Shown: positions 14,683 to 45,287 of the stretch, in pieces
How positions within the stretch are numbered: position 1 is the first letter of the stretch
How the letters are laid out: every line of letters starts with the position of its first letter
Source of the DNA: Amphiscolops sp. MND2022
Taxonomy: Eukaryota
Length of the DNA stretch: 64,000 nucleotides
Direction: 5' to 3'
Assembly: GCA_964187785.1 (NCBI GenBank)
Contig: OZ076409.1
Location: 14,758,001 to 14,822,000 of the forward strand
Notes under the pieces: model-generated
Told to the model about the DNA's origin: nothing
The model's database searches: none
Seen by the model: the letters and a program-made list of their open reading frames with translations, nothing else
Made by a program: the position numbers and the translations under genes

Positions 14683-15670
14683 TGTAACGTCTGCCACCGG
14701 GGGTGAACGGAAATGGGTCGAAAGAAATGGGTCGAATCGCCTCCTGTGCCATGGGTCGAATCTTCACCGTTTCGGAATTGGGTCGAATGGACTTGGGTCG
14801 ACCTTGAAAAATGCCAAGTTCAAAGGAGACAACATATTGATTTCGGACTATTCGACCTCAGTCAATTCGACCTAAGTTATTCGACCAAAAGGGTCGACCT
14901 AATTCTTTTCGAACTATTTCATTCGACCTATTTCATTCAACCCACTTCATGCAATCCTGCCACCGGCATGACCAAAATTTCGATGAAAAATTCGAAATGT
15001 GCGATGTCAAACCAGAAGAAAAAAGATGGCCGACCTAGCAGGAACAAAAAAAGCATGAAAGAAAAAAGAAAATACACGGAGAGCGAGCAAGAAACAGAGC
15101 ACGTGTGAAAGAGTTGCAGAAATGGATGAAAAATTGCCAGAAGATGAAGAAACATCAGCAGAAAGATCATCGGAATGTTGTGCCATCTCCTTGGGAAATC
15201 AACAACATCTGCAGAGCCTTGCCAGAGGCAAAATATGGATGATGGACTGAAAACTGTAAAGTAACTGGGGCTTATCCCCGTTTTCCCTTATTATTTCCAT
15301 ATTTCCCCTTTAGTATTTGGAAGATGTTTGACCTTCTAGGTCTTTTTATATCTTATTTGCCAAATACTATCTTTTCCAGCTGATCACCGTTTTTGACCTC
15401 GGAAGCATGTAGGAACTCGTAGGAACGCACTAGAAACCTTAGGGAACGTTTTTACAGGCTTGTGGGGCGTGTCCGGACTTTGAGAGTGCCGGTGCGTCGC
15501 TTCGGAGCTCTAACTAGAGAAGCCTCCTTAGACGTCAGAAAAGTCCCCGTAGGAGACCATTTTGGTACCAAAAACTAGTGTCTAGGTATGTAGTAAGACA
15601 ACGGTCTCCTGTTTAAGCATCCTAGGCATTGTCCCTCTTCCTAGATGTGCGTCGCTAGCCGGTCGTTACA
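14683..15670 (+). repeat. 5' LTR (contains a 257-bp MITE)
   Basis: Starts TGTAACGTCTGCCACCGG, ends GCCGGTCGTTACA; matches 33214-33944 apart from the insert and scattered substitutions. Confidence 0.95.
14701..14957. mobile_element. Mutator-like MITE (GGTCGAA subterminal repeats) inserted in the 5' LTR
   Basis: 9-bp TSD TGCCACCGG (14692-14700, 14958-14966); absent from the 3' LTR; GG..CC ends; inverted GGTCGAA/TTCGACC arrays. Confidence 0.88.
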
Positions 15671-15686
15671 TCTGGAATAGTTTTTA

Positions 15687-15704
15687 TGGCGACCACAGAG
15701 GGAT
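15687..15704 (+). promoter_or_regulatory. Primer-binding site, tRNA-Arg(TCG)-like
   Basis: TGGCGACCACAGAGGGAT is close to the reverse complement of the metazoan tRNA-Arg(TCG) 3' end; it lies 16 nt after the LTR. Confidence 0.75.
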
Positions 15705-18662
15705 ATTTTTCATTTTGCGTATAAGTAGGAGCAACTTCTGCTTTCCGGCCCCGAAGGGTCCAGATCTAGGAAAACTTATGGGAGAGTCCTAGATTATTCT
15801 TATCGCCTTTTTCTGGCCCTTTGGGCTTTGTACTAATGCTGTCCCTGCGTTTTCCGCATGTTTCCGAGGTCTACTTAGAAAAATTAAAGGTTTCTGACAG
15901 TGTACCCCCTTTAACCTTACTAAAGCCTAATAAAAAAGCTGTTCCGGCCTATCCGGAACGTGTTTTAAGGGGTTTTCTAGCTTGATTTTAGCTAATTTGC
16001 AATGTATGGGGACAGAGAGGACGAATGCTGAAGGCTTCCACCAGCTGTGCTGACGTGACGACGTTTGCAGTACGCCACGTCAAACGGGTGAAATCGTCCA
16101 TTTTCTTATTTTAACGGCCCAAAAAGAATATTCCCAGGCCTATTCCCATTACAACTAACTGAGAAAAATACCCAAAGGGTATTCCGATCAGTTATTAAAA
16201 AATTTGAGCTTGAAAACCTCGAAAATAACGTTATTTATAGCTCAAATACCAAAATTTTCAATTTTGAAAGCCAATATTTCGTCAAAAAGAGTGAGGCCAG
16301 TGGGAATACTAGAAAAACGTTCCAATAGACCCCCTTGGTCAGAAACAAAATTTTTTGTGGGGCCAATTTTCCAAAAACAGTGAGAAATTCAGCGATTTTT
16401 GTTTAAAAATTGTCAAATTTGGCCATTTTGACCCAATTTGTTAAGGGCAAAGCATTGGACATTAGCTTCCAAGCTTCTGAATCAGCCCAAAAACCTTTTC
16501 CCCTAGCTTGGTAGTACGAAACACTATTGCCAAAAAGCTTTTTAAGGCTCCCCAATAGAAATTGAAACTTTAACAACTTTTTTCTCTTGATATACATAGA
16601 CCTGAGTAGAGGACCCCATAGACCTGAGAGATATAACATCAAAAATAATATTTGAACGAACCCCAGCCCCCTAAAATAAGTTGTCATTTTCCATTCAGTA
16701 CTATTGGAACAATCCCGAACGTCCAAGAACCGACAGATAGAAATTTCTTGGTGAAAACACGTTATTTCAGTGTTGTTCCGAGAGTGTAGAAAGTGCAATA
16801 TGAAAATTTTTTGAGAGACCTTTTTTGGAACCTACCAGGTTTCGCTTGCCCATTTTCTGTTAGTATAAAGTATAACGTTACAAACGCAGAAAACCGCGAG
16901 TGATTCCAACCAGTGGTTGTTGAGAAATAGCCGAAAACGCGTTATTTTTGCGACATTTTGGGAACCATGTAGTAGTGCTTCCAGCACTAGTCGAAATCTC
17001 TCCTAATAGAAGCAGCCTCAAACAGATTACACCATCGTGTAGCTCACAAAGAGTTACGTTAGTGGTGTAATTTTTGTAGCGCTAGCATTACTAGTGATTA
17101 AGAAATCTTAGCCGCAGTTTTGCTCAAAAATCGTGTGAAAATGTCGAAAAAAAACTTTAGTTGAGCATAGTGCAATACCTTGCAGGTATCCCAGCACTAA
17201 AATTCTTGCATTTTCTTACGTACTGCACTAAATCCCGACGATTTATGCAATTTGAGCAGCCAGTGGCTAGCCAAAGCTGAAAAATCGACATTTTTGTGAA
17301 TTTTGACCCGTCAATGTGGTACCTCTGGTACATCAAGGTTTTATCACCTCGAATAGCCAAGTATCGCCCCAGGCACCTCGCCGCCGTGTTTTTCCAATAC
17401 CTGGGCACAAGGTACGCTCGCACGCAAAGTTTCAGGTAGCCAGGACGCCTACAAAGCGAGTTTGACCACTTTTTACAAATTACACGACATAGTCAATTTT
17501 TCAAAGAACATTATTAAAGGGCCGCAACACCCACAGGGTAAATTTTGGCACAATCGGCATTCAGTTCCCCACGATTCAATTAATGTAGTATACGGAGTGA
17601 AATTTTCAAGTCACTACGAGCCCGGGAAGTGATTTTCACCCTTCCCAGACGTGCCGATTGACGACAAATCCGCTAGTTTTGCGAAAACTGAACAGAGCAC
17701 GGCACTCTTTCAGTCCCAAACGACCCGTATAAGGACTTGAACATAACCCTTAAACATAAAGAGCACCCCCTACGCTCCCAACAGAGTCGCATTAACCGCC
17801 ATAGCAGTGCTTCCAAAACCAAGAGCCTCCAAAAAGATGCCCAGTTGACCAAAGAAATTGCGCACTTTAGTACCGAATTTGCTAAAAAAAGTGAAACTGT
17901 AGCACCATCAACGCAACAGCCTCAATCAAAGTTACCTTCCAAACTAAACGCCTTCTTCCATACTAGTTACCGAGTCCCGTTCCAATCCCCATCCATCCCA
18001 CCATACCCGAATCCGAAAGTCGGAAAGACTAGGTGAGTGACAAGCTTAGCCAGTCGAAAGAGCGCACTGCGCTTGAAACATCTATCTCGACCATTACCAT
18101 TCAACCCAATCTACCACCCACAGCACTAGCCACAATTCAATAGGCTCCTCCATAGCTTATTCCAAAGTAGATTAGCAAGTAGAACGTAAATAGTCAAAAA
18201 AAAACTTTTTCTGTTTGATAAATCAAAAATCCATTTCCCTCCACTCTGTGCAGACAGAGAACGAAACTTCAGTTAGTATTAATACATAGAATTACACTAG
18301 CCCAATTACCAAAGGTAGTACAAACTTTTTGTTAATCGCGACCCTATGATCTCACCCCAACCACAGCGCGACCACACCCATGTAATCCAGTTAATTTTAA
18401 TTTTGAAAAACTGCAACGAGCACCTGTTATTACCTTCCATCCTCTCTTTCAGGGGGACGAACAAGACAAATAAACCAAAAACACCATTGTTCAAAAATTC
18501 CCCTTTAGTTCACGATCAGAATCCAAACGCCAAAAACTAACCAGAAAGAACTGGAACCCTCCCAAAAGCTTCCATGCTACTGATCCTTTTAGTAACGTAA
18601 TAGAGGACGCAACCCGTTGGGAGACCCTTACCGACAACCCACAGAAACCAACTATTGCAGAT

Positions 18663-21106
18663 ATGTTTTCAGAACTCATGTCTGACTATATTTCCAACAC
18701 GGAACAAAACATGGAGATGACAACCGCAGCCGAACAACTCGGTTCGTCGCAAGCTTCCCCTGATAGTACTGATCCAGTGGATAGTACCGGAAGCACCACG
18801 CGAAACAACGCGTGGCCCCTTCTAGAAGTCACTGACTATAGCCTAGAGGAGTGGTTAAACTCAAATAAAAAACCCCCGTATGAAACAAGTGAAGCCGAAG
18901 AAACGGCATCACAAAACAGCAATCACTCAACTCCTGTAGCGCCCCCCGCACTCCTTCGATAAATAAGAACCCGCTGGATTCCCACGCATTAGACATTAAC
19001 GCGAATCGAAACGATCAAACCCCCTTTCTAAGCGGATACGCACAAAAAGCAGGGCCATCCACGGCACCTACCAAATCAAATGACAACCAACCAACACAAG
19101 TGGAAGACAACCCATTGCGGTACGTCTTTAGGACACCTCCATCAAGAAACCTGGATCTTGTCCCAAGACAAATAGACAAACCAAACTACACACCTAACTC
19201 CAGAGCCAGTGCAGGCACGGCCCCAGACTCGACCGTAACCAAGATCACAAAAGAATCACAAGCCGCGAGAGAAGATTTTCGAAATACCCTGGCCCAATTG
19301 TCACAAGTACATTCACGATTGTCACGAGAAAATACTGAACACGTGATGAGAGCTGATGTCATTATGAGGGACATGGATGAAATGAGGAAAGGCCTGTTAG
19401 AAATACAGGCTGAAGGACGTCAGAGCCAAGGAAGATTGGAAGCATCCATGGCCTCTCTCAATGACTTGATAAAACAAAGAGAAAACATGGCAGACACACG
19501 CATGGCCGAAATGTCCGCAGTGATGAAAGAAAGAGATCATCAAGCACACGAACGGATGAAAATGATGTCAGACCTCATGCAACGCAGAGAGACTGACGCA
19601 AACACCAGAATGATAGATCTGATGACCACGATGAAGGACCTGACATTAGGAGTGAGAGCAATGGCAGCCCAAACTGCAGCGGCTCAGGCAAAAATAACGC
19701 CAGCGGCGCCAATGACCTCTCACTCAGACGAACTGCCTTCCACCAGCACTGCCCCAAACCCAACACAAGCCACCTACCGCAAAATAGACCAGTCCAACGC
19801 CGAGCAAAATGAACCTCTGAAGTTGATACCACCTGCAACATAGAAAAAAGATCAACCACGAACCAACAAGATGATGAGAGTAATCAGAACAGAATCCTGC
19901 GATGTGGGCACGGACCCACTAACCAGTGTCTCATTTGACCCTTTTGCTCGTGGTGCATCAACAACGGGAGATTATTGTTCACCCGCAAGCGGCATGACTA
20001 CAAGAGAATCAAACTATTATACCGCCAAGACCAACATCAGCGAGAAATCCTCCAAGCAAGCATACTTAGATTTGATCCCGCGGCCAGTGGCAACTAGCAC
20101 GCAGCGAAAATCCACGACAAAGAGAAACTTAGAACAAGACAACGACGAGATGGAACAGCTTCCAGAAACGCCAAGCGCAACACCCGACACCCCAAGAACT
20201 AGCCAACGACAAGCATTGGCGGAAGCGATTTCAACCGCATTGTCCAAAGGCTTGGAACCGCTGCTCGCGGTGAAAGAATCGAAGAACAAACCCACGAAAT
20301 ATCGAGGGACCAAGGACGGAAACGCCGACGGATGGATGATGTTGATGAAACGTCACTTAGAGAAGGCACATGCCAGAGCGACTCCCCTCGACAAGGCCTG
20401 GAATATAATAGAGTATCTAGGACACGAGGCCCGAGACTACATCACCAATAAATCCGAGGCGGAAAGAGACACCGACGAAAAAGTCTTTACATTACTGGCA
20501 CGACGATTCGGAACTGGGTCAAGCAAGATCCATATACAGCAACAATTCCGAACACGCAACCAGAACAATGAAGAAGACTACATGCAATATCTCGATGCCC
20601 TCGAGGGTCTACGCAGCCAAGGCTACCCTAACGAGGAGGTGATCGTTCGCAGATACGAAATAATGCAAAAATTCATCGAAGGTGTACGCAACTTCGAACT
20701 AAAAAGAAACCTCGCACTGATGTATGCGCAAGAACAGTACGTTGAAGCACCTCCAACAGTAGAAGCGCTTCGCTTCACTGTTCAAAAATACCTGCGCATG
20801 CGCGGTTCTAATCGTCCAGAGAATTATCAAATGGCTCCGCCTCAACAATCTCAGCCTCCGCAACCGAATCAACAACCGAAATTGCCCCAGACAATTCCAC
20901 CACCTATACAGCAACCCCAACAAGTTCCACCTCCACCACAATTGGCACCCTACCGACAACAACCCCAACGAGCATGCTTTAACTTCGTGATCGATTGCCC
21001 ACTCAAAGACCATGCACGAAAACCAATACAACAACAAGTAAATTCTTGCCACACAAGCCCATCTGGTGGATGGACTTGCCCTTCACAACCACACGGGGGT
21101 GAATAA
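18663..21106 (+). pseudogene. gag: Gag (long low-complexity/coiled-coil N-terminus, capsid domain, damaged Zn knuckle)
   Basis: KPTKYRGTKDGNADGW...RFG...FRTRNQ...YLDALEGL...FIEGV is a Ty3-type capsid pattern. CFN-FVIDCP is a knuckle with a deletion. In-frame TAG at 19841-19843; upstream frameshift. Confidence 0.85.
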
Positions 21107-24100
21107 CGAAGTACACCCAGCATCACTACCTATCCAAGGGACTGTAGCCTTCTGTATCAATTGTGGATGCACTGAGCATTCCGCATCAGAATGTATAGCC
21201 CCAGAATACCCTAGACAAGAAGAACAAATTAGGGCAACATGGTATGCTCCGCATACCAACCAGTTTGATGGCGTACCGCAGGATGATCAAGTTAGAGTAA
21301 TCTCGGTAGCAGAGGCCGGAGGCCCTTCTCGTCCCGTCGTCATTACTTGCGGCGAAAAACAAGTGCTTACCACGCTAGAAGCACCCGCCCCGGACTGCAC
21401 CGAGACACTCATATCTATTCACTTACTCCTCTCGGCTGAACTAAAATCGCGTCCCGAACTGACACTAGCGCAATTAAAGGAAGACCTGTGTAGAAACACC
21501 AAGTATACAATCACCGCTCGACCGTTACCGCACTTCACCCGGGAGGACGAGACCAAATTAGCACCAATCCAAAAAGTGAAGACAATTTCCCCAGTACCAG
21601 TGGCCATTAACGTAGACGGGGTCGACTTGAAATTTGACGCCATCGTAGTAGTAGAAGGTTATTTCCCACAGGGATTATACCTGGGTCGCCAGGAGTTGAG
21701 GTGTTATAACATCGGAGTGCAAGACACTCAAGGGGAAGCTCGCATTGACGAACGAGCATCACTGGTAGTTGCCTTTGGCAGCAACCTCCAGGAACCCATT
21801 CCCTTATATGGTATGATCGACACGGGTTCAGGTGTCTCTATTCTCTCCCTTGCCGCTTACCAAAAGATTGCTTCCGCCCATTCATTGAGCCTCATGCCGT
21901 ATGACGTCCAGCTATACGCAGCAAACGGCAAAACCATAACGACTGTCGACATGGCTGAGAGTGTGAGCTTCCAATTGGGTAGCCACACACTGAAGACCAA
22001 CTTTATTGTCATAGTTGACCACCTAGGAGCTGAAGACTTCCTGTTAGGACGCAACTTCTTACGCACCTATTATGTCCTCGTGGATTTGACCGCAATGAGG
22101 GTCACAATCCGAGACCCAAAAACTCCACGCCATTTCAAACCTGACCATGAGGTTAGTGACCACGAACCTTCGTTGGTAGTGTCCACCGACAAAGTTGTAC
22201 TAGGACCTTTCGAACGTAAGTTGGTTAGAGCACAGGTCATCACACAGGACCCCAACCAATATCGTTTCCGTAATGTAATGATACGCCCCAGCGGGATGTA
22301 CAATCGAAGTTCCTTTATTTCAGAAGACACCCTAACTTCAGTGGGAGACGACGGCACGGTGTACCTAACCATAAGAAACAAAACCGCTACCGAAAACGTG
22401 CAAATACCAAGCAAAATTGTCCTTGGCAAGGCGGAGCCTACCATTTTTATGTTTAGACCGGTTTCGGTCGACCAAGCCGATGGAACCTCCATGCCTCTGA
22501 TAGAACAAGTTAATAATAATAACATTGTTGATCTTGACGACACAAGCAGTGAATTAGGTTCTTTCGCACAAAACTTCCTATCGTCTACTGAGTTGTCGGA
22601 AGAGGAAATGTCGGAAAGTGAAAAACGCGCCCAAACCAACCCCAACCTATTAAAACCAATACCAGGCCCTGACCTACCCTCTGTCCTTTCGTCTTGGGGG
22701 GAGGGAGCGAGAGAACAATTAGCAGAAGTTTTAAACGAGTACGACGACCTCTTTATGAAACATAAGGCCGACATAGGAAAACGTACAATAGCAAAATATC
22801 GTATTGAATTAGAACCACAAGCTATCCCCCACAATGAGGGCGCAAGGCGAATGTCTCCAGACAAGGCTGCCAAAGCCAATCAAGAAGTAAGGAACCTCTT
22901 AGCCTTAGGCTTAATCCAACCCTCCTACTCGCCTTGGGCTGGTGGAATAGTAATGGTAAAGAAAAAGACAGGCGAACTTCGCTTCTGTTGCGACTTCCGA
23001 CCGCTAAACGACGTAACAGTAAAAGACGCATTCCCCCTTCCCAGAATAGATGAAAGTCTGTCCAGAATAGGTAACGCTAAGATCTTCACGAGCATCGACC
23101 TAGCGTGGGCCATTTGGCAAATACCACTGAATAAACGCGATAGAAGGAAAACAGCATTTGCCTGTGAATTGGGTTTGTTTGAATGGCAACGTATGCCCTT
23201 TGGGCTATGCAATGCATCCGCCACCTTCCAACGATCCATCACTAGAGCGCTACAAAAAATCCAACAGAGACACGGGAGTGTCGTCATGGCCTACATTGAC
23301 GACATAGTGATTGCAACCGAAACAATGGAAGACCACATAATGAGAATCAAAGAAGTATTCGAATGTCTCAGAGAGGCAGGCTTCAAAATGCGAGCAGAAA
23401 AGTGCGACTTCATGCGCACGGAAACCAAATATCTGGGACGAATAGTATCAGCCGATGGAATCAAGCCCGACCCAGAAGCAGTGGCTAAAATCCGAGAGTG
23501 GATGCCACCAAGGAACGAAGAAGAACTCCAAAGCTTCCTAGGATTCGCCAACTACTATCGCGATTTCGTCCCATTCCACGCCGCCAAGGTGCAACCCATG
23601 CAGGAATTGCTAAAGAAGAATCAACACTTCAGTTGAGAAGAAAGGCACCCAGAAGCCTTCGACTCGGTGAAACAAGCCCTATCCGACGCTACCACTCTAG
23701 CTGCACCGAATGAACAAGGACGGTTCGTGCTAGATACTGACGCCAGCACGGTAGCGATCGCAGGTATTCTACATCAAGAACAAGAATACAATGGCAAAAC
23801 CATCCTGAGACCAATAGTATACGGCAGTAAATCACTGACCAAGACCCAACTGAACTATGGTGCCCCCAAGCTGGAAATGTATGCAGTGTTTTACTTCGTG
23901 GAGAAATTCCACTCATACCTAGCAGGTAGAGAGTTTACGCTTCGCGTAGACAACCAAGCCCTGTCATGGCTCAAAACTTACTCCATGGACCAAGCCATGA
24001 TTGGCCGTTGGATCGCACGTCTAGACCAATATCATTTCAAAACGATCCACAGACCGCGTACGCAACACCGAAATGTCGATGGACTCAGCAAGCGCACCAA

Positions 24101-25891
24101 CGACTATTTTAATCTCGAACAAATCCTTAAAAAGCCACCAGAGGTAAGCGAAGGATTCAATTTCATGTCACAAAAAGACTACGACGAACTCCCCACAGTT
24201 CCATACTTCGACAAACGTGGTCATCTAATTCCAGACCACCCAAAACTCCCTCCAGAAGCTCGAGCTCAACTACCCCTGTTATACATTCTTCAGAAGAAAC
24301 GAAAGAGCAAACAGCCCGAAGAGCCAACCAGGATTACCCCCTGGTATCCCGAAACTCAATGGGAAACCACACCGACTCTTGAAGAAAACGAACGACCTAA
24401 CCGAATTTTGAGCATAACCACAAGAGTGCCTCCGGCACGAATAGACACCACTAAACCCGATCCAACTCTAAGGTCACTCCCTGTCGAATGTCAAAAACAA
24501 GCAGACGTTTTGAGAACCATCGATGCAGAACTGCACGAACACCACCTAACCAAATATGGCCTCCGAGACCTACACATGGCTCAGAATAGAGACGTACATC
24601 TCTTGGCACTGAAGAAACTCATGAAGAACGAGCCCTTAGAAGGTCCAATGTTCCCAGATTAAATACAAGACTTCGCCAAGAGGTATTACCATCAAAAAAA
24701 GGATCTACTTATCTTAAACCCTGACGACATACTCTGCGTCAATTACGTTCCTCAACAACGTGCTCTCCACGTACGCCTTTGCATGATAATCATGCCGCAA
24801 CTTTTCCAACACGAAATCTTGTATCGAGCGCACGATGAATCGGGACATCAAGGCGTGGGAAAAGTGCTGGCCAGGATACAAGAACGACACACTTGGCCAG
24901 GAATCAAAAGGGACGTAGTAAACCACATCAAACAATGCTTAACTTGTCAACAAGCAAAGCACCCAGCAAAAAATCCTTGCTACCTGCAAAGCATCAATAG
25001 TAGCAATTTCAACGACCTGGTTCAATTTGATCATTTAAAGCTCTGCAAAACAGACTCTGGCAACACCGGCCTTTTGGTAATAATAGATCATTTTACCAAA
25101 TTTGCGGAAGCAGTCCCATGCGCTCACGACGAATATGACGCGCAAACCACGCCAAAATCTATCCGAAATAAATGGTTTGCCAGGCATGGCACTCCTGCTA
25201 GGATGCAATCAGACAATGCGACAAACTTCACCGCTGAGGTCGCCCAGGAACTTATGAAAGCCTCTCAAGTCACCAAAGTTACGTCTACCCCAGCACACCC
25301 CAGAGGAAATGGACTCGTGGAGCGACAGAATAAAACTTTACTCACTTTGCTCCGAGTCTACACATCGCGCAGAATGCAAGACTGGGATGAATACATTGAT
25401 GGAGTCCTAGGCGCATATAATTCCACCCGAAACGCCACTACAGGGTTTTCACCCTACATGCTCCATCATGGCGCAGAAAAATCCATCCCACTATCATTTA
25501 TATACCCAGAGTTCGCAGCGCGAGGCTTTGATTCCCAAGAAGAGTTCGTGGAAAACCTATTGGCCAGACAACGAGAAATCCATGAATTGGTTCGAAGAAA
25601 CACTCATCAAGCTCAGCTTCGGCAAAAGCTAAAATTCGACCGCCACGTAAAAGCAAAAGCGCATGCCGTCGGCGACGCTGTCTGGGTTTTTTGTCACAAA
25701 TCCCCAAAGGTGGTACTCGCAAGCTTATACGCGCTTGGCGCGGACCCCACAAAGTCACCGATGTACTACAAGATGGACGTCTCTACGTACTCGACACAGG
25801 TCAAAAAGTTCACTACGAGAGACTAAAGAAACACGTACCAGCCCCTGGGACTGGACTACTTACCAACCTTTTGGACCGGATCAAAATATAG
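21066..25891 (+). pseudogene. pol: Pol: CCHC knuckle, protease, RT, RNase H, integrase
   Basis: CINCGCTEHSASEC; IDTGS (D at 21819); RMPFGLCNA and YIDD (23292); DTDAS..E..DN; HDESGH..CLTC, QFDH..SDN..VER; WRGPH. Stops at 23634 and 24660; frameshift near 25700. Confidence 0.97.
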
Positions 25892-28163
25892 CTATCATCG
25901 CTGATCCATACGTGGAAGACACTAACGAAGAATTTACTTCCGATATCTCTAGAGACTCCTTCCTACCTGAACAACTCTCTGAGGCATCGTTCGAATTGGA
26001 ACCCACAAGACCGGTCCCTCCTCGTACCATCCAGACACGTACTCAAACTGCCCTAGAACAAGGGGTCCCGCGCAGGAGATTCAGCCAATTCGGATACCCA
26101 TCCGAATCAGACTCTGAGGCCGAAGCGCCCGGACCTCCTCCCATGACCTCTCCCTCCCAGGTAGTATTCCCCGAAATCGACGATCTAGAACCACTATTTT
26201 CTGATCAGGAGGAAATACTACCACCAACTCTCACCGAAAGCTTGGTACCATCGCCCTCTGGAACTTCAGCTCCATTACTATCTAACCCCTCACTCACAGA
26301 TACCTTAAGCAACTTCCCCCTATTTAACTAACAAACAAAGAATCCCAACAAACAGACTGATCCAATCCAAACCACTGAACCTAAAGAACATAATGTCGGA
26401 CCCGACAACCAGATCACGAGTCAAAACCCACCACCCACAACTACCAACATTAGAGGTCGACCTCGAGGCAGACCCCCCGGTCTCAGAAACCAACTACCCA
26501 AGTCATCAAGCGGAACTACTACGTCTTCCTGGAGACCAACCACACGGAAGAAAAGAGGCCCAAGAACCCAATTTTCCTCCAGAACCGCACCCAGGACACT
26601 TGACAGAGCCATGACTCTCCCTCAGATTCCTGAGAGTTCAACTCCTACTCAATCAAACCAACTAGATGATACTTCCAGACAAGCACCACGCTATCAACTC
26701 CGAGCCAACAGAACGCCAAAATATAGATGCGGAACCTGTGGTTCCCGTGACTGTAGTTGCATCCAGCTAGTCACAACGGAACCCCCGAATCAGCGACTGG
26801 CCCTGGGAGCGATGATTCCGGCTTGCGAACTCATCTTAGCACAAACAGCAAACCATCCACAACACGAAATCTTGAATATACGAGTAAAGCTACAAAAACC
26901 CAAAACCCCGCCAACCATCCGACACATCACCTTAACATTTGAGAAGACTTTTACAAGCACCGAATCTGAATCAATACCACCTCTAGAATCCACTTTGAAA
27001 GAAATGCATAAATTCTCCCCTTCTAATTGCCCAACGTATCGCTTCAAAGAATGGACAACTCATGAAAAGATGGACTTGAATTCACATTAGCCGCAACCAT
27101 TCCCCCTTTACCACCCTCATTCTTATTCGGTGAGCTAGACGATACCTGCAACAACCTCCAAATGATTCGGTGCATCACCGACAACCAACTATGGAAGAAA
27201 TATCACATCACTTCCCCTCCGGGTGACGTATATCAACCATCCACAGGATGGTGGTTCCTAGTCACTTCCCTCGACGACTCCTCATTGGTCTCACCGACTA
27301 CATTATTACTATGCCTAGAGAATCTACGCACCCTTGTAGAGACAAGCGACACCCTATGTTTTCATCTCGCCGACATTTACCGCGGAAAATTCTTGAGCCA
27401 ACACTGGTTGCAACTGATAGTCATTATCTTTTGCAGACAAACGAAGATTTGCATTTTCGACCGATTAACATACACACCCAAAACTCCAATATCTCCATTA
27501 GAAGCACTTTCCGTAATGCACAGCTGGTCGTGCATACACATGGGTAACCGCCCCCTGCAACGTACAATATGGGAAGATCGCAAAGCATTTTTTGGACACT
27601 TGATGTCGAACCCCTTAGAGAATCATGCAGCAGAAACTGGAAAATGGCTCATATCACAACCGAAAATTCGTCCAAGCCACGTGCCATGGATTACTTACTC
27701 TGACACGGATATTCTACAAGCCTCTGGCACACTAGTATTGTGTTGTCCCGCAAACCTCTAATTCCAATCGGCGACTATTCGATATATCATTCGCGAAGAT
27801 GGACAAGAAACCATCTTCCGTTTAAAACCTTCGGTTGGCATGACCATTTGCTTGCAATATTCCCACACGGCACCCTGGAACAATCAAATTTTCCTCTTGT
27901 GCACCAGAGCCTCCAACAAGCACCCACTCCTGCACGAAACCCTACATACATGCCTCAACCACCTCCGACACCAACTCCATCAACACGGAATTTCCCAAAT
28001 TCATATACCCATCTATGATCCCGAACGATCGATCAATCTCCTACCAACTTGGTACGCCACACTCCGGGACCATTTTTTCGGGTTGAATCTAGAAATAATA
28101 CTCCACGATAGAGTCTACGTTTCAATCGCATCAATTTCTCCTACTGACATCACTGCTGATTGA
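25860..28163 (+). pseudogene. Integrase C-terminal extension ending in two TARG1/OARD1-like macrodomains
   Basis: P/S/E-rich linker and CGTCGSRDCSC motif, then WWFLVTS..TLLLCLENLR..HWLQLIVIIF and DILQASGTLVLCCPANL..IFLLCTR..ETLHTCLNHLRHQLHQHGISQIHIP..WYATLRDHF, both paralleling the OARD1 pattern. Stops at 26329 and 27759; frameshift ~27070. Confidence 0.72.
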
Positions 28164-28504
28164 ATCCTCATAACTGCAGGGCCAGAGGCCAGCCCTCCTT
28201 ATTCTTCTGAAAAACCATCCCACTTTCCTTATTGACTTTCTCGATACGTGCGAACTAGTCCGTAGGATTTTTAATGACTGCACTCTATTAAGCTACAAGT
28301 CTTCCTAACACTTACTCGGTTTTTTAAGTTTTAACCATTTGTATTCCCTTCTTAACTTTTTTGATATACCCTATGAAACTCCTCTCTACTCATGTGCAAC
28401 TTGCTTTTCAGTTTTATCCTATTGCTTCGCCCTTGCGCAGCTTTCCTAACTTGCACCATCACTCACTTTCATCGATATCACCCTATTCCCTATCAGTGCT
28501 ATCA

Positions 28505-31500
28505 ATGGACTCTTCATCACGCAACCGCATGCCTGCACCCAGCAGCCAACAGAATCCCCAACCTCGTATGCCTCCTGCTAACACTCTTCCACCAGTGGGC
28601 GAGGTTATTGGTCGAATCGAACAACTAGCCTTAGTCCAACAAGCTTTACAAGATGGAGCCACCCCCACCATGATCGCTGGCTTTGCCATGATCGTAACAC
28701 AGATGCAAGCTCAAGCTGTGCACCCAGAAGTCCTGTTAACCATCACGAGTAGCATCGGGCCGCTTGAGCGTTCCGCTACCTTCCGCGATGGCGTTTGGCA
28801 TGGTTATGACTTAACTCATAATCTTATTGACCCTCGCTCCCACATGCTCTATGGAGAAACTGAAAGGCCTCCAATGGATCAGGAACGATCATTCAGAATC
28901 TCTCCCCCAACGATTCAACCTTTGTTCCAAGCACCACAGCCAACCCCCCCCCACAAACCATGATTCAGCTTCCACCCACCAAAACTACAACCTTCAGCTG
29001 CATCCTACCCTTAATGCCACCTCCAATTCCCACACCACCTATGCCTCTGGCATCCGTAAGTGTCAGCTCGCTCACTCCATCTACTTCTGGCTTTATGCTT
29101 CCTTCCACCTTTCAGGGGAGAGGGGTGCAAGTAAGCCCCATCGAATGCAACCAAGTAACAACACAAGAACAAGCCAAAGAAACTCGCCCGACAAGAAAGG
29201 TCACGTTCCAAGATGCATATGAAGAACTAATTCCCTCCACCTCCAACACCCAACCTGCCCGAAACGAACCCAGCAGACTGATAGGATTCCAAAAGGATCC
29301 AAAACTGCATGAACGGCAAAGAGAAGAACAGCGAGAGGAAAGAAAGGCCAACAATGCTCCAATAGACCTTCGCGACAAGTTGAACGCAACCAAGAGGGCC
29401 AGAGAACAAGACGGGCAATCTAGCTCAAGATCAAACAAAGGAATTCAATCCCCATCCCCTAGCCAACCAGAGACCAGGAGGCAAAAGGTCGCAAGAGAGC
29501 TACTGACTGCGGCAGAAATGAAGCAGCTGGATATAACGGCAAAGGACGCAGTGCGTCTTCAACGCGAAGTACCAAATATGCCTGATGAAGAAAATCCTCC
29601 AAGTCAGAAGTTTGCGAGCGCTAATAGCAAAGGTGACCAAACCACTCAGCGAATCATAGAGAAGGCAAACATTGGAGTAGTTTACAACAGACCAGTTAAG
29701 CCACCGATATTCACCAATGATGGAGGAGTCCCGCCATGGCTCGAGCGTCTTAGGAGAGAGTTGCAGAACAGTAACTCAACGTACCTACAACCGCTCCAAG
29801 CAACCAACGAGCGACTAGCTCGCCAGAGACCCGGCAGATTCGGAGAAAGTCATCTACAATCAAAAAACTATGCAAGGAACCCCATCACCCTGCTGCCAAT
29901 GGGAAAAGACCTATTGCAAAAAACCAGAATTGCTCTCTTCGTAGACTCGACCATCAAATCATCGTACAATTCTAACAATAATCTGATGGATTATAGACTA
30001 ATGAACATGCCCTGCACCGCACTCAATGAAATGGCTGAGGTAACCGACAAAATGCTCACACCAGCGGCGGCAGAAACAAAACCTCTTCCACCAATCCTGG
30101 TATACTCGAACGTAATCGACCACCTCGCCCTGCGAGGATCAATGCGACACTTCGATACGCTGAGCACTCGATTCACTGAAGGATTTGTCACCGACGAAGT
30201 CACCGCGTACGTAGAAACATTGTCCCATATTGCCACATTGATGAAAAATAAGAAACCAAACACAGGAACAGTCTTCGTGTCACCCCCTGGATACATCTAT
30301 CTCCCGAGAGCGTTGCAACAATTCTTGTACTTGGTGCTGGAAGCATCCTATGCAAGAGACTTGCATTTCTACATCGTTGCTCCGAACTTAAGGATCAACG
30401 TAACCACGTGGCGCCCCTGTGAAGCATCATACCCCGCATTCTTGGCTGATATATCCAAGGCTATCCAAGGATTTACGGGATATGAAGGCAACTCACAGCT
30501 TATTGTTGACGAAGCCACCGCATACGACTACGGAATGCAAATGTCCATCAGATCCCTAGATGAAAACGGTGTGCGCAAAGTATTTGACCCAAACGAAGGT
30601 GAGAGAAAACACCTGATAGATAACCTCTGGTTTGAAAGGAGGGACGAATCCACCCTCGATGAAAAGACTCACGATCCGAAATTCCATAAAGAGCTCCTAG
30701 CTCTTTTCAAGGAAACAGAGATGATCAAAGCAGAACGGACCAACACTACTGTGTTCCCCATTGCAGCCATAGCAACAGATGCCAAACTCGACATGGCGTC
30801 CCTCACCTTGACACTCTTGATGGTAATGACACGAGGCTTGGCAAGACAGAACGAAGCAGAACCAAATCACACTTACCAAACTTGGCACAAAGCCTTACGT
30901 GAAACTCTAAATCAGGTCGCCCTGCGGCTGGAAATCCCATTCCCTGTATTCCTCTACAATATCTCCCCCTTTTGGCTCCCAAGTTTCGTCCAAGCTCAAT
31001 TCAACCTCGATGACCAACAAATACGCCTATACGTGGAGGCAATGCGAAAAGCCACCATAAGCGAAATATTGGCTTATTTAATGGCGGTGGGCATGCACGC
31101 AGTCTACAAAGGACCCTCAGGCATTCTGCAGAAGCTGATCTTCGACAAAGGACACTTACCGCTCTTCAGCTACCTGGTGTATGCTCAAAATCAGAAGAAC
31201 TGGCTGCAAGCAATCTTAGGTGCCTTGGACCCAGCGGGTCCCCAACGATTGAAGAAACAACTAGAACTGAACATTGAAGCCATTCTCACGTGGATCTACT
31301 CAACTTGGGTAAATGTCGCGGTTCTTATGCATCTTCTGGATGAAAACCCGGCCATCAATAGAGAACCTAACCTTTTCCCTGGCTTCTTTTTTCCCTCACA
31401 AATGGCCACTCTCATGTTGGTGTGTTGGTGGAAACAGAGGATTTAATACCTCTAATCGCTCCCATCGTCTGGTCAATTTTTGGCGCGGTCATGGCACTGA

Positions 31501-32664
31501 GATACCCGACCCAAGTCTTGCGTGTGGCAGCGAATACTCCCACTTTTTCCATACTACACTTTGTAACGACAGATGGAACCCAACCGGAGCCCACCTACCG
31601 CGGAGTAATAGCCAACTTCAATTCTTTACAACCGCCTATGGCCTACACAATCATCAAAGACAAAAAGCAGGCAGAACACAAATTCACATCTATCATAAGA
31701 GCACGTGCGCGATGCGCCCTCCCGATGCCAATGGAATTCCATCCAATCGCATGGCTACATATCCCTCTGAACCCAGCAACAGGAGCAGCGCATTCCCTTG
31801 CAGACTGGAACACAGAAGTGATCTTGAGGATCTTAACCACTGTAATTCAGAGATTGGGCGGCAGAAGGCGAGGCGAAAAACCAAGTGGGTTACGATATCC
31901 TTATGTATGTGACATTTCAAGGATGTACTGTGATCGAACCAATCCCCGCGCACACCCATCCCATATACTAGAAGCAACGACATGCTGGTCAAAACCAGAC
32001 TTGGTGGATTTTGCAGTTCACCAGACGTCTCAGCGCATGAAGGCAAAGACGCCCTCAGTGGCAAAAGAACCAAATAGAAAAGCCTTACCAATCAGTACAG
32101 ATGTCCCAAACAATCCGCGCGCCGCGCTGGAAATTTTCTTAAATCTGCACAACAAACAAAGGGAACGAGGATGTTTCTGTTGGCGAAGACTATGCACGCG
32201 GAATTCAGAATTTCAAAAATTTGTTCGTACAGTATGGCCACCCAGAATTGGCCGACAAACTGCCCGACTTCCCACAGGGAAATACCACCGAACAAAATAG
32301 TGTAACAAATACGGCTGCCCCTGACAGCTCACAGCAAACAATACCCAGTGGGTTGCCCTCGGAAGGAACTGAGACTTGAATGGAGGAAGACCAGGAGAAT
32401 CTATCCATTGCCACAGAAACCCATGATGAACCCATTACAGACGATAATTTCACTCTGTCCGATGGCACAACCCCTACCCAAGATGAACCAGAGACGGGAA
32501 TATCGCAAATCGACGCTGCTGATATTGAATCAGAGTTGAAAAACTTACTCACCATCGACGACTCAATCCAATATCCTCCCTTGGTGGCGGAATTGTCAAC
32601 AAATCAGCAGTCAACAGTAACATCATCCGTTTCGGACTCACAACAGAGCCAAAATGATGAGTAA
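28505..32664 (+). pseudogene. Accessory ORF3 (~1380 codons if repaired) with SGNH-hydrolase-like domain at ~29925-30475
   Basis: Abutting ORFs 28361/28960/31422/32380 are joined by frameshifts (poly-C ~28945, TGTTGGTG duplication ~31415). SGNH-like blocks IALFVDS, PPILVYSNVIDHL, KPNTGTVFVSPP and WRPCEASY. Confidence 0.7.
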
Positions 32665-33205
32665 AGGAGCAACAACCGACGCTGACCCGTCTACCAAATG
32701 AAAACCAGAGCTTACCCTCAAATGGACACAACCTCATCCTAATGGTCCTAGACCATTTCATTTTTGTTGGTGCTAAGACACTGAATTCCTGAGCAATACT
32801 CATTATATGCTTAAAATTTTAGTTAAACCATGCTATGTGGGTGGGCCCTGAGCCAGTTCCCACCCTCTCCAATTCGGTATTTGACCATTGTTACCAAGAC
32901 CCGAATTTTGTTACCCCGAGAAGTGCCAGAGCACCTTCTAGAAAAAAGATTTTAACCTAAGTTCGTGGAATTGCATGTAATTTTTGAAACCGTCTGCCAT
33001 AATTTTAGTTTTGTCAAGTAAATTTTTAAGTTGTCGTTAGACTGACTGATATTAGTACGAGGAGATAACAAGGAAATTTGGAGGTTGAAGGAAAACAAAT
33101 AAGAAAAAATGAAACCTTCCTAAGGTGTTCAGAAAACTCTCAACATTGCTAGCACCCTCTGGGTATTACATCCTCTTCTTTGCCGAGGACGACAAACTAC
33201 GGCCC

Positions 33206-33213
33206 GGGGAGGA
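33206..33213 (+). promoter_or_regulatory. Polypurine tract
   Basis: GGGGAGGA immediately before the TG of the 3' LTR. Confidence 0.8.
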
Positions 33214-33944
33214 TGTAACGTCTGCCACCGGCATGACCAAAATTTCGATGAAAAATTCAAAATGTGCGATGTCAAAACAGAAGAAAAAAGATTGCCGACC
33301 TAGCAAATACAAAAAAAGGATGAAAGAAAAAAGAAAATACGCGGAGAGCGAGCAAGAAACAGAGCACGTGTGAAAAAATTGCAGAAGAAGATGAAGAATT
33401 GCCAGAAGATGAAGAAACATCAGCAGAAAGATTATCGGAATGTTGTGCCATCTCCTTGGGAAATCAACAACATCTGCAGAGCCTTGCCAGAGGCAAAATA
33501 TGGATGATGAACTGAAAACTGTAAAGTAACTGGGGCTTATCCCCGTTTTCCCTTATTATTTCCATATTTCCCCTTTAGTATTTGGAAGATGTTTGACCTT
33601 CTAGGTCTTTTTATATCTTATTTGCCAAATACTATCTTTTCCAGCTGATCACCGTTTTTGACCTCGGAAGCATGTAGGAACTCGTAGGAACGCACTAGAA
33701 ACCTTAGGGAACGTTTTTACAGGCTTGTGGGGCGTGTCCGGACTTTGAGAGTGCCGGCGCGTCGCTTCGGAACTCTAACTAGACAAGCCTCCGAACTCTA
33801 ACTAGACGTCAGAAGGGTCCCCCTAGGAGACCATTTTGGGACCAAAAACTAGTGTCTAGGTATGTAGTAAGACAACGGTCTCCTGTTTAAGCATCCTAGG
33901 CATTGTCCCTCTTCCTAGATGTGCGTCGCTAGCCGGTCGTTACA
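33214..33944 (+). repeat. 3' LTR (731 bp)
   Basis: TGTAACG...CGTTACA, direct repeat of the 5' LTR. Confidence 0.97.
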
Positions 33945-34183
33945 CAATCTTATCGGTTCTGAGCAAACTCTTTGAGCGGGTAGTTTTCGAGCGACAATTA
34001 AATTCATGCAAGTGAACAATCTTTTCTATTGTAAATTCGGATCAAAAATAAGTACACTGAATGCACTAAGGGGCATATTGGAAACGATCCGAAATGATAC
34101 CCAACTTGATGTATCCTGTATGCTATTGAATCTGTAAAAACGGCGTTGTTAGTGATATGTCGAATGATTGGCGAGGTTAAATA

Positions 34184-34257
34184 AGCCATTTGGTCCAAGA
34201 GTTAAGGCGCTTGACTACTATCAAGATCCGTCTTGCGATGCAGGTTCTGTCATGGCT
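34184..34257 (+). pseudogene. tRNA-Ser-like pseudogene / SINE head (copies at ~35277, ~39768, ~40861)
   Basis: AGCCAT..ATGGCT acceptor-like stem, GTTAAGGCG D-arm end, CTTGA/TCAAG anticodon stem, long variable arm, GCAGGTTC with deleted T-loop remainder. Confidence 0.6.
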
Positions 34258-34266
34258 ACTTTCACA

Positions 34267-34767
34267 GGTTACCAGTCACTTGGTTTAATACCATTTGGCT
34301 CATTTTTTTTCTTGAGTCACTTGGCTCAAAAATTTTAACCCAAGTGACCACAAAATTAGGCCAACTCCATTCCAACTCACGGAATAAATAAATCAACTCG
34401 CAAAGATAATCTCCAACTACGATCGCTTCGCGATCTCCGTTCCCTCTGGGTCTTTGCTCCTGTTCGACCTCACTTAGCAAGATGGGAATATAAGCGGCCC
34501 CAAGGGGCCGCAGGGCACTAGAGGAAATGGGGAAATATCCGAGGGGTACTTGATATGACAGGTTATAATAGTACGTTGACTACGTTATAATGATAAATTC
34601 GACAAAATCTGCCACGTGTTTTCAACTAAGTGGTTTTAAGTCAAATCACTTCAAGCCAAGTGACCAAAACCCGAGACACTTAGCTTGAAAAAATTAAGCC
34701 AAGTGACTAATGTCATTGAGCCAAGTGACTTTAAGCCAAACGGTATTAAGCAAAGTGACCATTTGTC
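34267..34767. mobile_element. MITE with GTCACTTGG/CCAAGTGAC subterminal arrays (4 copies through duplication)
   Basis: TSD CTTTCACA (34259-34266, 34768-34775); imperfect TIR GTCACTTGGTTTAATACC / GGTATTAAGCAAAGTGAC. Confidence 0.8.
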
Positions 34768-36011
34768 CTTTCACACAATCATGCCGAGTTTGAGTTGTTA
34801 TTAATCTAAGAATAACTCTTGAAATGAAACATGAAATCTTTGATAAAATTGAAGAGTTATGGTGTGAGAGGTATTTGTTTGGAATGGTTGCAGTGGTGTC
34901 TCAATGATCGTATCTAATGGGTGAGCGGAAATAGGTCGAAGGAACGGGATCGAAAATCAGAAATAGTTCTCGAGTCGACATACCAAATTTTTGAATGGGA
35001 TCGAAACAACTCGGATCGAAATTTTGATTTTTGGGGAACAAATCGAATTGCCGCAGATAGAATTTTCTAGAAGGGGACCGCAACTAAGGTCTAAAGAATA
35101 AGATCTAAGGAAATTTCGTAACTTAGATCTAAAGAACTAAGATCTAGAAAGCATGCACCGTAACTAAGGTCTAAATTGAAATAGAATAACGTCTAAGGAA
35201 TAACAATCCTGTATGCTATTGAATCTGTAAAAACGGCGTTGTTAGTGATATGTCGAATGATTGGCGAGGTTAAATAAGCCATTTGGTCCAAGAGTTAAGG
35301 CGCTTGACTACTATCAAGATCCGTCTTGCGATGCAGGTTCTGTCATGGCTACTTTCACAGGTTACCAGTCACTTGGTTTAATACCATTTGGCTCATTTTT
35401 TTTCTTGAGTCACTTGGCTTAAAAATTTTAACCCAAGTGACCACAAAATTAGGCCAACTCCATTCCAACTCACGGAAAAAATAAGTCAACTCGCAAAGTT
35501 AATCTCCAGCTACGATCGCTTCGCGATCTCCGTTCCCTCTGGGTCTTTGCTCCTGTTCGACCTCACTTAGCAAGATGGGAATATAAGCGGCCCCAAGGGG
35601 CCGCAGGGCACTAGAGGAAATGGGGAAATATCCGAGGGGTACTTGATATGACAGGTTATAATAGTACGCTGACTACGTTATAATGATAAATTCGACAAAA
35701 TCTGCCACGTGTTTTCAACTAAGTGGTTTTAAGTCAAATCACTTCAAGCCAAGTGACCAAAACCCGAGACACTTAGCTTGAAAAAATTAAGCCAAGTGAC
35801 TAATGTCATTGAGCCAAGTGACTTTAAGCCAAACGGTATTAAGCAAAGTGACCATTTGTCCTTTCACACAATCATGCCGAGTTTGAGTTGTTATTAATCT
35901 AAGAATAACTCTTGAAATGAATCATGAAATCTTTGATAAAATTGAAGGGTTTTGGTGTGAGAGGTATTTGTTTGGAATGGTTGCAGTGGTGTCTCAATGA
36001 TCGTATCCAAT

Positions 36012-37061
36012 GGGTGAGCGGAAATAGGTCGAAGGAACGGGATCGAAAATCAGAAATAGTTCTCGGGTCGACATACCAAATTTTTGAATGGGATCGAAAC
36101 AACTCGGATCGAAATTTTGATTTTTGGGGAACAAATCGAATTGCCGCAGATAGAATTTTCTAGAAGGGGACCGCAACTAAGGTCTAAAGAATAAGATCTA
36201 AGGAAATTTCGTAACTAAGATCTAAAGAACTAAGATCTAGAAAGCATGCACCGTAACTAAGGTCTAAATTGAAATAGAATAACGTCTAAGGAATAATGTG
36301 GGGTCATATACGGTGTATGCACGCTCGCCCTCACCGTCGCAAAGACCAGCTCCCACTATGATCGCTTCGCGATCTCCGTTCCCGCTAGGTCTTTGCTCCT
36401 GTTCGACCTCGCTTAGCAAGATGGGAACATAAGCGGCCCCCAAGGGGCCGCAGGGCACTAGAGGAAATGGGGACATATCTGAGGCACGTTTATTTTTTAA
36501 AGCATTTTATACTTTACCCGTAACATTTAAAAAATGGGAATAACGGAAATTAAAACGGGAATAACGTCTGAAATTTAGACTTTCGGTACTATTCGGGAGC
36601 TGGCATTCTCTAGATCTTAGTTACGAAAAATGACATTTAGATCTTAGTTCTTTAGATCTGAGTTACAGAAGTGCGTTTCGATCTTATTCCTTAGATCGTA
36701 GTTTGTGCCCACTTTCTAGAAAAGTATAAAACGTGTCTCGAATATGTCCCCATTTCCTCTAGCGCCCCGCGGCCCCTCGGGGCCGCGTATGTTCCCACCT
36801 TGCCAAGCCAGGTCGAACAGGACCAAAGACCTAGCGGGAACAGAGATCGCGAAGCGTTCGTAATGTGAGCTGGTCTTTGCGACGGTGAGGGCGAGCGTGC
36901 ATACACAGCATATGCCAACATTATGATAGTCAATTGACTTGAGGCAAACAAAGAACGTTTTCGTCCAGAAGGCTTCGATCAAACTCGACCGCATTCCATT
37001 CGATCCCTACAATTCGATCAAAAGGTTCGACCAAAAAAATTCGACCTATTTACAGCCACCC
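36012..37061. mobile_element. Mutator-like MITE, same GGTCGAA family as 14701-14957 (duplicate 41596-42645)
   Basis: 9-bp TSD GTATCCAAT; TIR GGGTGAGCGGAAATAGGTCGAA / TTCGACCTATTTACAGCCACCC. Confidence 0.9.
36166..36712. mobile_element. Nested Mutator-like MITE with ACTAAGATCT arrays (duplicate 41750-42296)
   Basis: 9-bp TSD TTTCTAGAA (36157-36165, 36713-36721); imperfect 22-bp TIR. Confidence 0.85.
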
Positions 37062-37092
37062 GTATCCAATGCGTTGCCCTTAATCATCAGTG

Positions 37093-38716: not shown

Positions 38717-39726
38717 GATCAGTATTCAAACACCCTAGCTATTGAGTGTGGCGAACCACAAGGATCGATTCCAGGACCGCTTTTGTTTCTAGTATAAGTC
38801 AAGGATTTTCCAAGCTCTTGCGATGATATTTTATCATTCTTGTACGCATATGATACTAACTGTATGTATATTCGACCGAAAAATGCTACGTCGGCACTTC
38901 AAGATAAAGTTAATAAAATACCGTTGTTTATGGCAAAAATGAAATGAGTCATCATATTGGAAAGACTGAGCTGGCGCACGTCTTGAGTTGTCGGGAAGAA
39001 AGTGTGAAATTGGCAAATACTACCATATCTCCAATCAAATCTGTGAAGAATCCGGGTGTTCATCTGGATAGAAATTTGACCTTCGAAGCCCATGTTCAAA
39101 GTGTATTTGGAAAAATGGCTGAACATGTATCAGTGGTAATGCGGATGAGACATTTTTGTAAAAGTTCATCAGTGGTGAGGTATTATAACATTCACATGAA
39201 ACCTATCATCCAATACGGTCTTTCAGTATACAGTTGCACTAGGAAAAGTAAATTGAAGGACATACTTCTGCTGCAAAAGAAATTACTTCGAGTTATCTTT
39301 TTGAAAAATCGAAAATACCCGTCCGATGAGCTGTTCGAAAGAAGCCGTATCAAAAATGTCTAAAACCACTATGTTTGTGAAATTTTGAAATCTGCCGTTC
39401 CTTCAACGTGAGGCAAAATTTTAAAAAATGTGAAAACTTTTTCACTCACAAGAGCTCATTGATCTTCACTCGAAATGTTAGCACGAACATGTTTCATGTA
39501 CCACAGCTAGGTTTGAAAGTTTATCGACAGTCTCTGGAGTATCGTGGAACGTTACTACTGAATCACTTTCAGAGGACAAAATCTTTTGCCTCCTGATTAC
39601 GAGATATGCGAAAGTCGAGAGCTTAGTTATAGTCTCCGTAACATCTAAAAACGAAAAAAGAGTGAGTGCCTGGCTGATAGTTTTTGTGTGATGGACTGTG
39701 TACGAGAAACCTACCCCGTCTTAGTA

Positions 39727-39762
39727 ATATATATATAATAATATATATATATATATATATAT
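39727..39762. repeat. (TA)n microsatellite
   Basis: Directly visible. Confidence 0.95.
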
Positions 39763-45087: not shown

Positions 45088-45287
45088 NNNNNNNNNNNNN
45101 NNNNNNNNNNNNNNNNNNNNNNNNNNNNNNNNNNNNNNNNNNNNNNNNNNNNNNNNNNNNNNNNNNNNNNNNNNNNNNNNNNNNNNNNNNNNNNNNNNNN
45201 NNNNNNNNNNNNNNNNNNNNNNNNNNNNNNNNNNNNNNNNNNNNNNNNNNNNNNNNNNNNNNNNNNNNNNNNNNNNNNNNNNNNNNN
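45088..45287. other. Assembly gap (200 N)
   Basis: N run. Confidence 1.

Follow-up and report, generated by a model that had tools for sequence, protein, structure and literature searches.

A large accessory gene with a predicted, likely non-catalytic SGNH domain in the env position of a Ty3/Gypsy retrotransposon from Amphiscolops

The window analyzed here is the whole of a 64,000-nucleotide stretch from Amphiscolops sp. MND2022 (assembly GCA_964187785.1, contig OZ076409.1, forward-strand positions 14,758,001 to 14,822,000). It holds a 19-kb Ty3/Gypsy long terminal repeat (LTR) retrotransposon (14957-33944) that carries, after pol and in the env position, a 4.16-kb accessory gene, the third open reading frame or "ORF3" of an earlier note on this DNA (28505..32664, plus strand). 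It is highly probable that this gene is selected, is not an env, and lacks canonical esterase activity. Its product, ~1,380 amino acids (aa) long in intact relatives, contains a predicted SGNH-fold domain that keeps the nucleophile Ser and has Arg at the site of the catalytic His. We tentatively favor a cytoplasmic pseudo-esterase scaffold, made from a spliced mRNA, that would bind an anionic, probably lipid, ligand without turnover; the less secure part of this proposal is the mechanism of lipid binding.

State and conservation of the accessory gene

The ATG at 28505 and the stop codon at 32662-32664 line up with the two ends (residues 1 and 1382) of P0120, an intact natural relative of 1,382 aa, and a tblastn comparison with this protein gave four pieces of 84, 85, 76, and 77% identity that cover the gene from end to end. 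The copy in the window is not open, as it contains three frameshifts (near 28950, 31420, and 32180-32280) and an in-frame stop (32377-32379). The gag-pol of this copy is broken as well. In many close relatives gag and pol are fused as one open reading frame (ORF) of ~2,998 aa, and "ORF3" is therefore really the second ORF of the element. The large, non-env ORF3 of the earlier note is thus indeed large and non-env, but neither open in this copy nor third in order.

From the N terminus, the protein consists of a small conserved domain followed by Pro-rich sequence (28505..28945, delimited by comparison with relatives), a Pro/Ser/Thr-rich linker with a conserved KRAR-type basic motif (28954..29919), the SGNH-fold domain (29920..30480), a conserved, mostly helical region (30481..32250), and an acidic low-complexity tail (32250..32664). 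Proline accounts for 11-12% of the first 430 residues. The tail has a net charge of −26 across 138 aa and contains a short conserved helix motif of the ADIExEL type in 10 of the 11 proteins checked. The Pro-rich N terminus, the long helical region (here predicted from models), and the acidic tail had all been read from the sequence before and are borne out, as are the VDS and WRP motifs, whose Ser (29947-29949) and Arg (30412-30414) codons lie within the SGNH domain. The KRAR-type motif, which we take to be like a nuclear localization signal, is weak evidence for nuclear import.

Of 7,999 candidates that were scored, 45 proved to be relatives of ORF3 at E ≤ 0.001. None of them is named, and the clusters behind them contain up to 342, 240, 210, 172, and 118 members. 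In a profile search of 1.84 billion representatives, 463 proteins passed E ≤ 0.001; the best 150 of the 463 all align to family members, 16 of them at <40% identity to any of five references. The family comprises high-copy subfamilies and relatives down to ~25% identity, and distant relatives of 1,140 and 1,187 aa have the same layout as the window protein. Intact 4-kb frames are kept in subfamilies that are 48-60% identical, with identity between subfamilies being highest in the core (50-82%) and lower in the tail (27-46%). The base composition of the gene is that of pol, unlike that of the flank, and in P0029 a reverse transcriptase (RT) is joined to an ORF of the window's type. Loci of relatives were sought in metagenome contigs and viral contigs, and none was found there. 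From these comparisons we infer that the accessory gene has long belonged to the element and has been under selection. Conservation among copies, on which the earlier note had placed weight, is seen in the end-to-end match to P0120 and in a Ser/Arg pattern that runs across the family.

A captured host gene decaying within the element would account for the broken copy in the window and for the length distribution of the members listed from seven clusters, of which 26 of 93 reach at least 1,340 aa and the remaining 67, the majority, are shorter fragments. This origin is, however, extremely improbable given that gag-pol is broken too, that divergent subfamilies keep intact frames, that the gene resembles pol in composition, and that its relatives are all unnamed, with the best 150 profile matches falling within the family.

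Predicted fold and active site of the SGNH domain

The fold was modeled with AlphaFold on the natural relative P0060, which is ~65% identical to the window protein, using a 92-row alignment. Residues 41-220 were modeled with confidence (predicted local distance difference test [pLDDT] of ~68-94). An independent VIA search of 48,161 chains had platelet-activating factor acetylhydrolase 1bwp as its top match (Z 11.6, root mean square deviation 3.7, 181 aligned), and a Z of at least 8 was reached by 45 chains; among the matches listed, almost all were SGNH/GDSL proteins. The 42 rows obtained with Foldseek for the P0060 domain were likewise nearly all SGNH/GDSL, with the ZfL2-1 esterase 4c1b at rank 18. 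The domain is predicted to have a flavodoxin-like α/β/α, SGNH hydrolase-like fold, in agreement with the SGNH-like core proposed earlier. The OSK domain of Oskar (5A4A) was not among the matches listed in the structure searches, which does not exclude a match. By profile, ORF3 had no match in Pfam (chance-level rows only), PHROGs, or PDB. Residues 1..178 of TesA align to residues 42..227 of the P0060 model, and the offsets of TesA Ser10 and His157 would place Ser51 at the nucleophile and Arg206 at the base, a placement that assumes gapless end stretches and is taken from the aligned ranges and not from coordinates.

Active-site residues were tallied over 290 aligned segments from 282 proteins, many of them near-identical copies. 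Block I has Ser in 107 of 108 cases and the preceding Asp in 105 of 108. The catalytic His site is occupied by Arg in 115 of 120 and by His in 2 of 120, and block V has no conserved Asp. The canonical Asn of block III is absent (0/118, with the register taken from the GxND of the sister proteins described below), its site being Ile at 30115-30117 in the window. At the tallied positions of block II, Gly is not among the common residues of the window's family, while the distant relative P0493 has it. The His of a DH motif, which follows the block III Asp (30121-30123), is present in 111 of 116. Counted by lineage where covered, with lineages drawn by eye with the help of the domain tree, Ser is found in 10/10, Arg in 13/13, and the DH His in 10/12, being replaced by Asp in P0493 and by Tyr in P0190. 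An invariant alternative His was rejected, since it is lost in 2 of 12 lineages. Judged from these tallies, the canonical catalytic set of SGNH/GDSL hydrolases is lost in the window's family, as the earlier note had supposed, and the predicted domain is likely a non-hydrolyzing pseudo-esterase.

Here and below, published systems are described as in the available portions of the cited papers. In a survey of 30 SGNH reference structures, 29 keep both Ser and His and only Oskar is without both (PMC10792757, Table 2). None of the 30, as tabulated there, has the pattern of the window's family, Ser with Arg and without His. The family adds to this survey a class of SGNH domain with Ser kept and His lost, together with ~500 conserved residues for which no fold match was found.

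Sister lineages with intact and degenerate SGNH domains

An RT search identified P0373, in which Pol and a GDSL domain (by Pfam) are joined in one protein. With its tail as the query, 85 further proteins of up to 2,951 aa were recovered, the largest of their clusters having 974 members, and Pfam Lipase_GDSL_2 was matched in 77 of the 86 sister proteins. Their ORFs (2,400-2,950 aa) run from an N-terminal domain through an intact GDSL esterase, a degenerate Ser/Arg domain, and a helical region to a long extension. The first SGNH domain is intact (S 74/76, G 76/77, N 77/79, D 79/83, H 81/83). The second, degenerate one has S in 79/81, N in 75/80, and R in 76/78 and is acidic (net charge −7, −8), and one sister group keeps the block II Gly and the block III GxND in it. 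An ORF3 profile built without the sisters matches them at E ~1e-15 to 1e-19 (first 70 rows of the 85-protein set). HHalign aligned ORF3 with the sisters colinearly over 669 columns (98.8%), which takes in ~500 helical residues, and with P0477 alone over 623 colinear columns (97.6%). The PDB profile matches of the sisters stem from the intact GDSL domain and none from the degenerate one, and a protein atlas search with a sister protein gave no usable match.

In five chimeric proteins (P0373, P0418, P0450, P0456, and P0457), a sister ORF is linked with pol of a single lineage (82-98% to P0378/P0362). Sequence evidence of this kind ties the giant sister ORFs to Gypsy elements whose RTs form the sister clade, and in these elements they presumably occupy the env position. 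Some lineages therefore hold natural pairs, with intact and His-to-Arg SGNH domains in one protein, and others the His-to-Arg domain alone. As the degenerate domain is the part kept by every lineage, the elements may need binding and not hydrolysis.

Tandem duplication was rejected as the source of the two SGNH domains of the sisters (profile probability of 0.1%), and the N-terminal domains of the single- and double-SGNH types showed no supported homology either (2.5-3.6%). In the SGNH domain tree, which bears on whether the active GDSL domain was gained or lost, long branches meet. Apparent in-frame internal duplications of the accessory ORF were seen in P0013, P0404, and P0406; together with the five chimeras, found in both orders, they point to frequent internal rearrangement of these elements. 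The accessory ORFs of P0409, P0477, and P0476 (clusters of 828, 907, and 344 members) are ~2,200-2,950 aa long, with P0409 beginning downstream of its relatives' N terminus. They have ~1,000-1,500 extra C-terminal residues that gave no Pfam match and are absent from the window's type.

Near-invariant Ser and Arg, held down to ~20% identity, are also what a remodeled enzyme would show, in which Ser would still be the nucleophile, activated by Arg, by the DH His, or by a residue of the helical half or of a partner, for acyl transfer or phosphoester cleavage. Such an enzyme would fit the conservation of the DH His, which is found in 80/80 degenerate domains of the sisters besides the 111/116 of the window's family, and the block II Gly and GxND of one sister group; SGNH proteins with chimeric and rearranged triads do exist (PMC10792757). 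We nevertheless consider it unlikely, because the DH His is lost in P0493 and P0190, the window's family is missing the block II Gly, block III Asn, and block V Asp, and Ser without the block V His occurs in 0/30 reference structures (PMC10792757).

Helical region, env features, and expression

The helical region is colinear with the giant sister ORFs, and its helices, including a hydrophobic one near 31440-31500, are predicted. The model of this half, made for P0035 from an 81-row alignment, has a mean pLDDT of 53 and is confident across ~170 residues only. Structure searches with it gave a best E of 3.5 in PDB, a best E of 0.028 (probability 0.16) in a viral library, and a best Z of 4.8 with VIA, with none at Z ≥ 5. 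At this low model confidence, the searches show neither a fold match nor a new fold. The best protein atlas score for ORF3, 0.88 for Med5-like helical scaffolds of Mediator, lies under the 0.9 lead line.

Given its position and a candidate subgenomic splice acceptor, the gene might encode an unrecognized envelope or fusion protein, and the helical half does contain a hydrophobic 19-mer that scores 1.8-2.2 in 6/6 relatives. The segment aligned to this 19-mer in the sisters, however, has Arg and Glu, and the helix is therefore read as buried. Hydropathy scans of six full-length relatives found no hydrophobic leader in the first 43 residues, in line with the missing signal peptide reported before, and no Env-type C-terminal membrane anchor, the C terminus being acidic instead. 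The relatives have just 7-10 Cys and no conserved furin-type site. By these sequence features, the accessory protein would not be a retroviral-type Env, and an envelope function of any kind is very improbable.

The candidate splice acceptor (28401..28415, plus strand) contains TTTCAG at 28406-28411, with its AG ending at 28411 and the next ATG at 28505. In frame it reads FQF, a word found again, 31-35 codons ahead of the start, in all 16 relatives with an upstream extension, of 41 with a recognizable start and from three subfamilies, as counted at the level of protein and not of codons. This recurrence suggests a conserved splice acceptor, and the accessory protein is probably expressed from a spliced subgenomic mRNA. 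A donor-like AGGTGAGT at 18031-18038 was rejected as being at chance level (1 found versus 2.9 expected).

Proposed function

In the mechanism that we tentatively favor, a spliced subgenomic mRNA would give a soluble intracellular accessory protein. Its retained Ser and the Arg that replaces His would keep an anionic, lipid-like ligand bound with no hydrolysis, and its helical half would act as a scaffold linking the ribonucleoprotein (RNP) or particle of the element to membranes. The ZfL2-1 esterase, which still binds liposomes when its active site is mutated, offers an analogy (PMC3905857).

Several observations weigh against this proposal. The membrane binding of ZfL2 is driven by positive surface charge (PMC3905857), and the SGNH-like domain of the window's family is near neutral (net charge of −3 to +2), a charge that speaks against membrane binding by plain electrostatics. 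By profile, the two SGNH domains of the sisters, intact and degenerate, do not resemble each other, so that a lipid context comes from adjacency only, and in the chimeras pol precedes the accessory ORF in 2/5 and follows it in 3/5. The fold was modeled for a relative (~65% identical) with an overall predicted template modeling score of 0.37, Foldseek gave no row at E ≤ 0.001 (best 0.035), and the Ser/Arg pocket is a prediction from aligned ranges. Near-invariant Ser and Arg would suit catalysis just as well as binding, and the KRAR-type motif and acidic tail would also fit a nuclear protein.

This last point bears on another possible but rather doubtful role, that of a nuclear or granule RNA-handling factor like OSK or the CERV protein of Cer1, which would bind the element RNA and promote its export, RNP assembly, or escape from silencing. 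Candidate spliced expression, as for CERV (PMC10309623), and the acidic tail are consistent with such a factor, and so is a K[KR]x[KR] motif that precedes the domain in 8 of 11 proteins, with RKR in 2 more. The basic motif is, however, also obtained in 9-32% of shuffles, and 7 of its 8 matches come from three closely related subfamilies. The likeness to Oskar, which the earlier note had drawn, proved to be loose. OSK shares the non-catalytic SGNH domain and an aliphatic residue at the Asn site, but Oskar is an RNA-binding host gene that has lost Ser, with Asp in its place, and has no Arg at the His site, whereas the window's family keeps Ser and fixes Arg (PMC10792757). The domain net charge of about zero speaks against Oskar-like RNA binding, which leaves the RNA-binding half of the earlier inference of an RNA- or lipid-binding protein disfavored.

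A bolder proposal is that an old clade of giant Gypsy elements swapped env for a dedicated machine of 1,100-3,000 residues, combining an invariant, rewired Ser/Arg SGNH core of new chemistry with helices in a fold not described before, to which an active lipase working in tandem would be added in some lineages. We regard it as improbable; if true, it would be an envelope-free route to membrane remodeling, egress, or counter-defence.

Relation to known elements

For LTR elements of rotifers, SGNH genes in the position of env have been published before (PMC5408684), contrary to the view in the earlier note that SGNH domains are not recognized as standard LTR-element cargo. The Vesta1 LTR retrotransposons of bdelloids carry GDSL/SGNH ORF3s after pol (Rodriguez, Kenefick, and Arkhipova, 2017; PMC5408684). 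Like the gene in the window, these occupy the place of env without typical env features, and their function is unproven in the available text. Vesta ORF3 is, however, ~1.3 kb long with intact S, G, N, and H, whereas the window gene has 4.1 kb, the His-to-Arg change, and ~500 conserved helical residues after the domain, and the sister lineages, unlike Vesta, hold intact and degenerate SGNH domains in tandem; Vesta is set apart here by description and not by sequence comparison. Athena-L/Terminon Penelope-like elements have catalytically dead GDSL ORFs (PMC5408684), another retroelement SGNH domain without catalytic residues but in a different retroelement class, also compared by description only. 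The ORF1p esterase of ZfL2-1/CR1/RTEX (Schneider et al., 2013; PMC3905857; PDB 4c1b) shares the SGNH fold and serves as a model for catalysis-independent membrane binding. It differs in belonging to non-LTR elements, in its gag-like position, and in its active triad and basic surface.

Planarian Burro and plant Ogre (PMC6431247) are likewise oversized Gypsy elements with additional coding capacity, and Cer1 CERV (PMC10309623) is an accessory protein likely made from a spliced mRNA; no SGNH domain is mentioned for any of them in the portions available. This literature leaves open why retroelements have come to carry SGNH esterases time and again (PMC5408684, PMC3905857). A large, likely inactive SGNH form was not found described in the literature searched, which covered titles and abstracts, with most subscription papers and Repbase reports outside coverage. 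What is new in this family is its size, the fixation of Arg in place of His alongside a retained Ser, a long helical module that matched nothing, and, in the sisters, the pairing in tandem of an intact with a degenerate domain.

Carrier element and other features of the window

The carrier is a Ty3/Gypsy LTR retrotransposon with the protease-RT-RNase H-integrase order of that group (Pfam). It is bounded by direct repeats (14957-15670 and 33222-33944) that align with 690 matches, 24 mismatches, and one indel. The 3′ LTR (33214..33944, plus strand) has TG...CA ends and a purine tract upstream (33206-33213), while the 5′ LTR (14957..15670, plus strand) is without the first 8 bases of its counterpart. 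CAATC lies just upstream of the 5′ LTR (14952-14956) and downstream of the 3′ LTR (33945-33949); because of the 8 missing bases, we grade it as only a probable target-site duplication. A primer-binding-site-like stretch (15687..15703, plus strand) starts with TGG, 16 nucleotides past the 5′ LTR, and was assigned from its sequence and not from a tRNA match; a tRNA scan with ARAGORN found none.

By Pfam and tblastn, gag-pol (18570..28163, plus strand) encodes a PNMA-like gag (weak E value), protease, RT, RNase H, integrase, and a long C-terminal extension. In an RT tree of 29 rows, the window and 28 sequences picked from 120 RT matches listed, the window clusters with ENA proteins (support 100/99). 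The closest named RTs among the matches listed, at ~40% identity, are from fishes and a pseudoscorpion.

A macrodomain-like segment at the C terminus of Pol (27636..28130, plus strand) is suggested by transitive evidence only, via P0403. Pfam Macro was matched by the outgroup relatives P0402 and P0403 (E of 6e-5 for P0403), P0403 is 24-28% identical to the Pol tails of close relatives by BLASTP, and tblastn puts such a tail at 27636-28130. This segment may be a counter-defence module, and no report of Gypsy macrodomains was found in the literature searched. A second macrodomain in Pol was rejected, as profile probabilities were 0.6-5.6% and the 100% for the last domain is circular, both profiles sharing rows.

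Two long insertions in Pol, at 24000-24660 (RNase H to integrase) and 25850-27060 (past the integrase), are also present in the 2,998-aa relatives and consist of Pro/acidic spacer with a small Cys cluster. The leader between the 5′ LTR and gag (15671-18570) is very long, ~2.9 kb, and is without a long ORF; an Rfam search of 14900-34000 gave no match. Downstream of the element, 34113-45087 is a tandem duplication with a unit of ~5.3-5.6 kb and 99% identity, which reaches up to a gap of 200 N (45088-45287), holds 1.09-kb repeats and inverted arms, and may be an assembly artefact. Upstream of the element, a 1.58-kb unit is repeated three times in tandem at 8406-13143 with ~99% identity.

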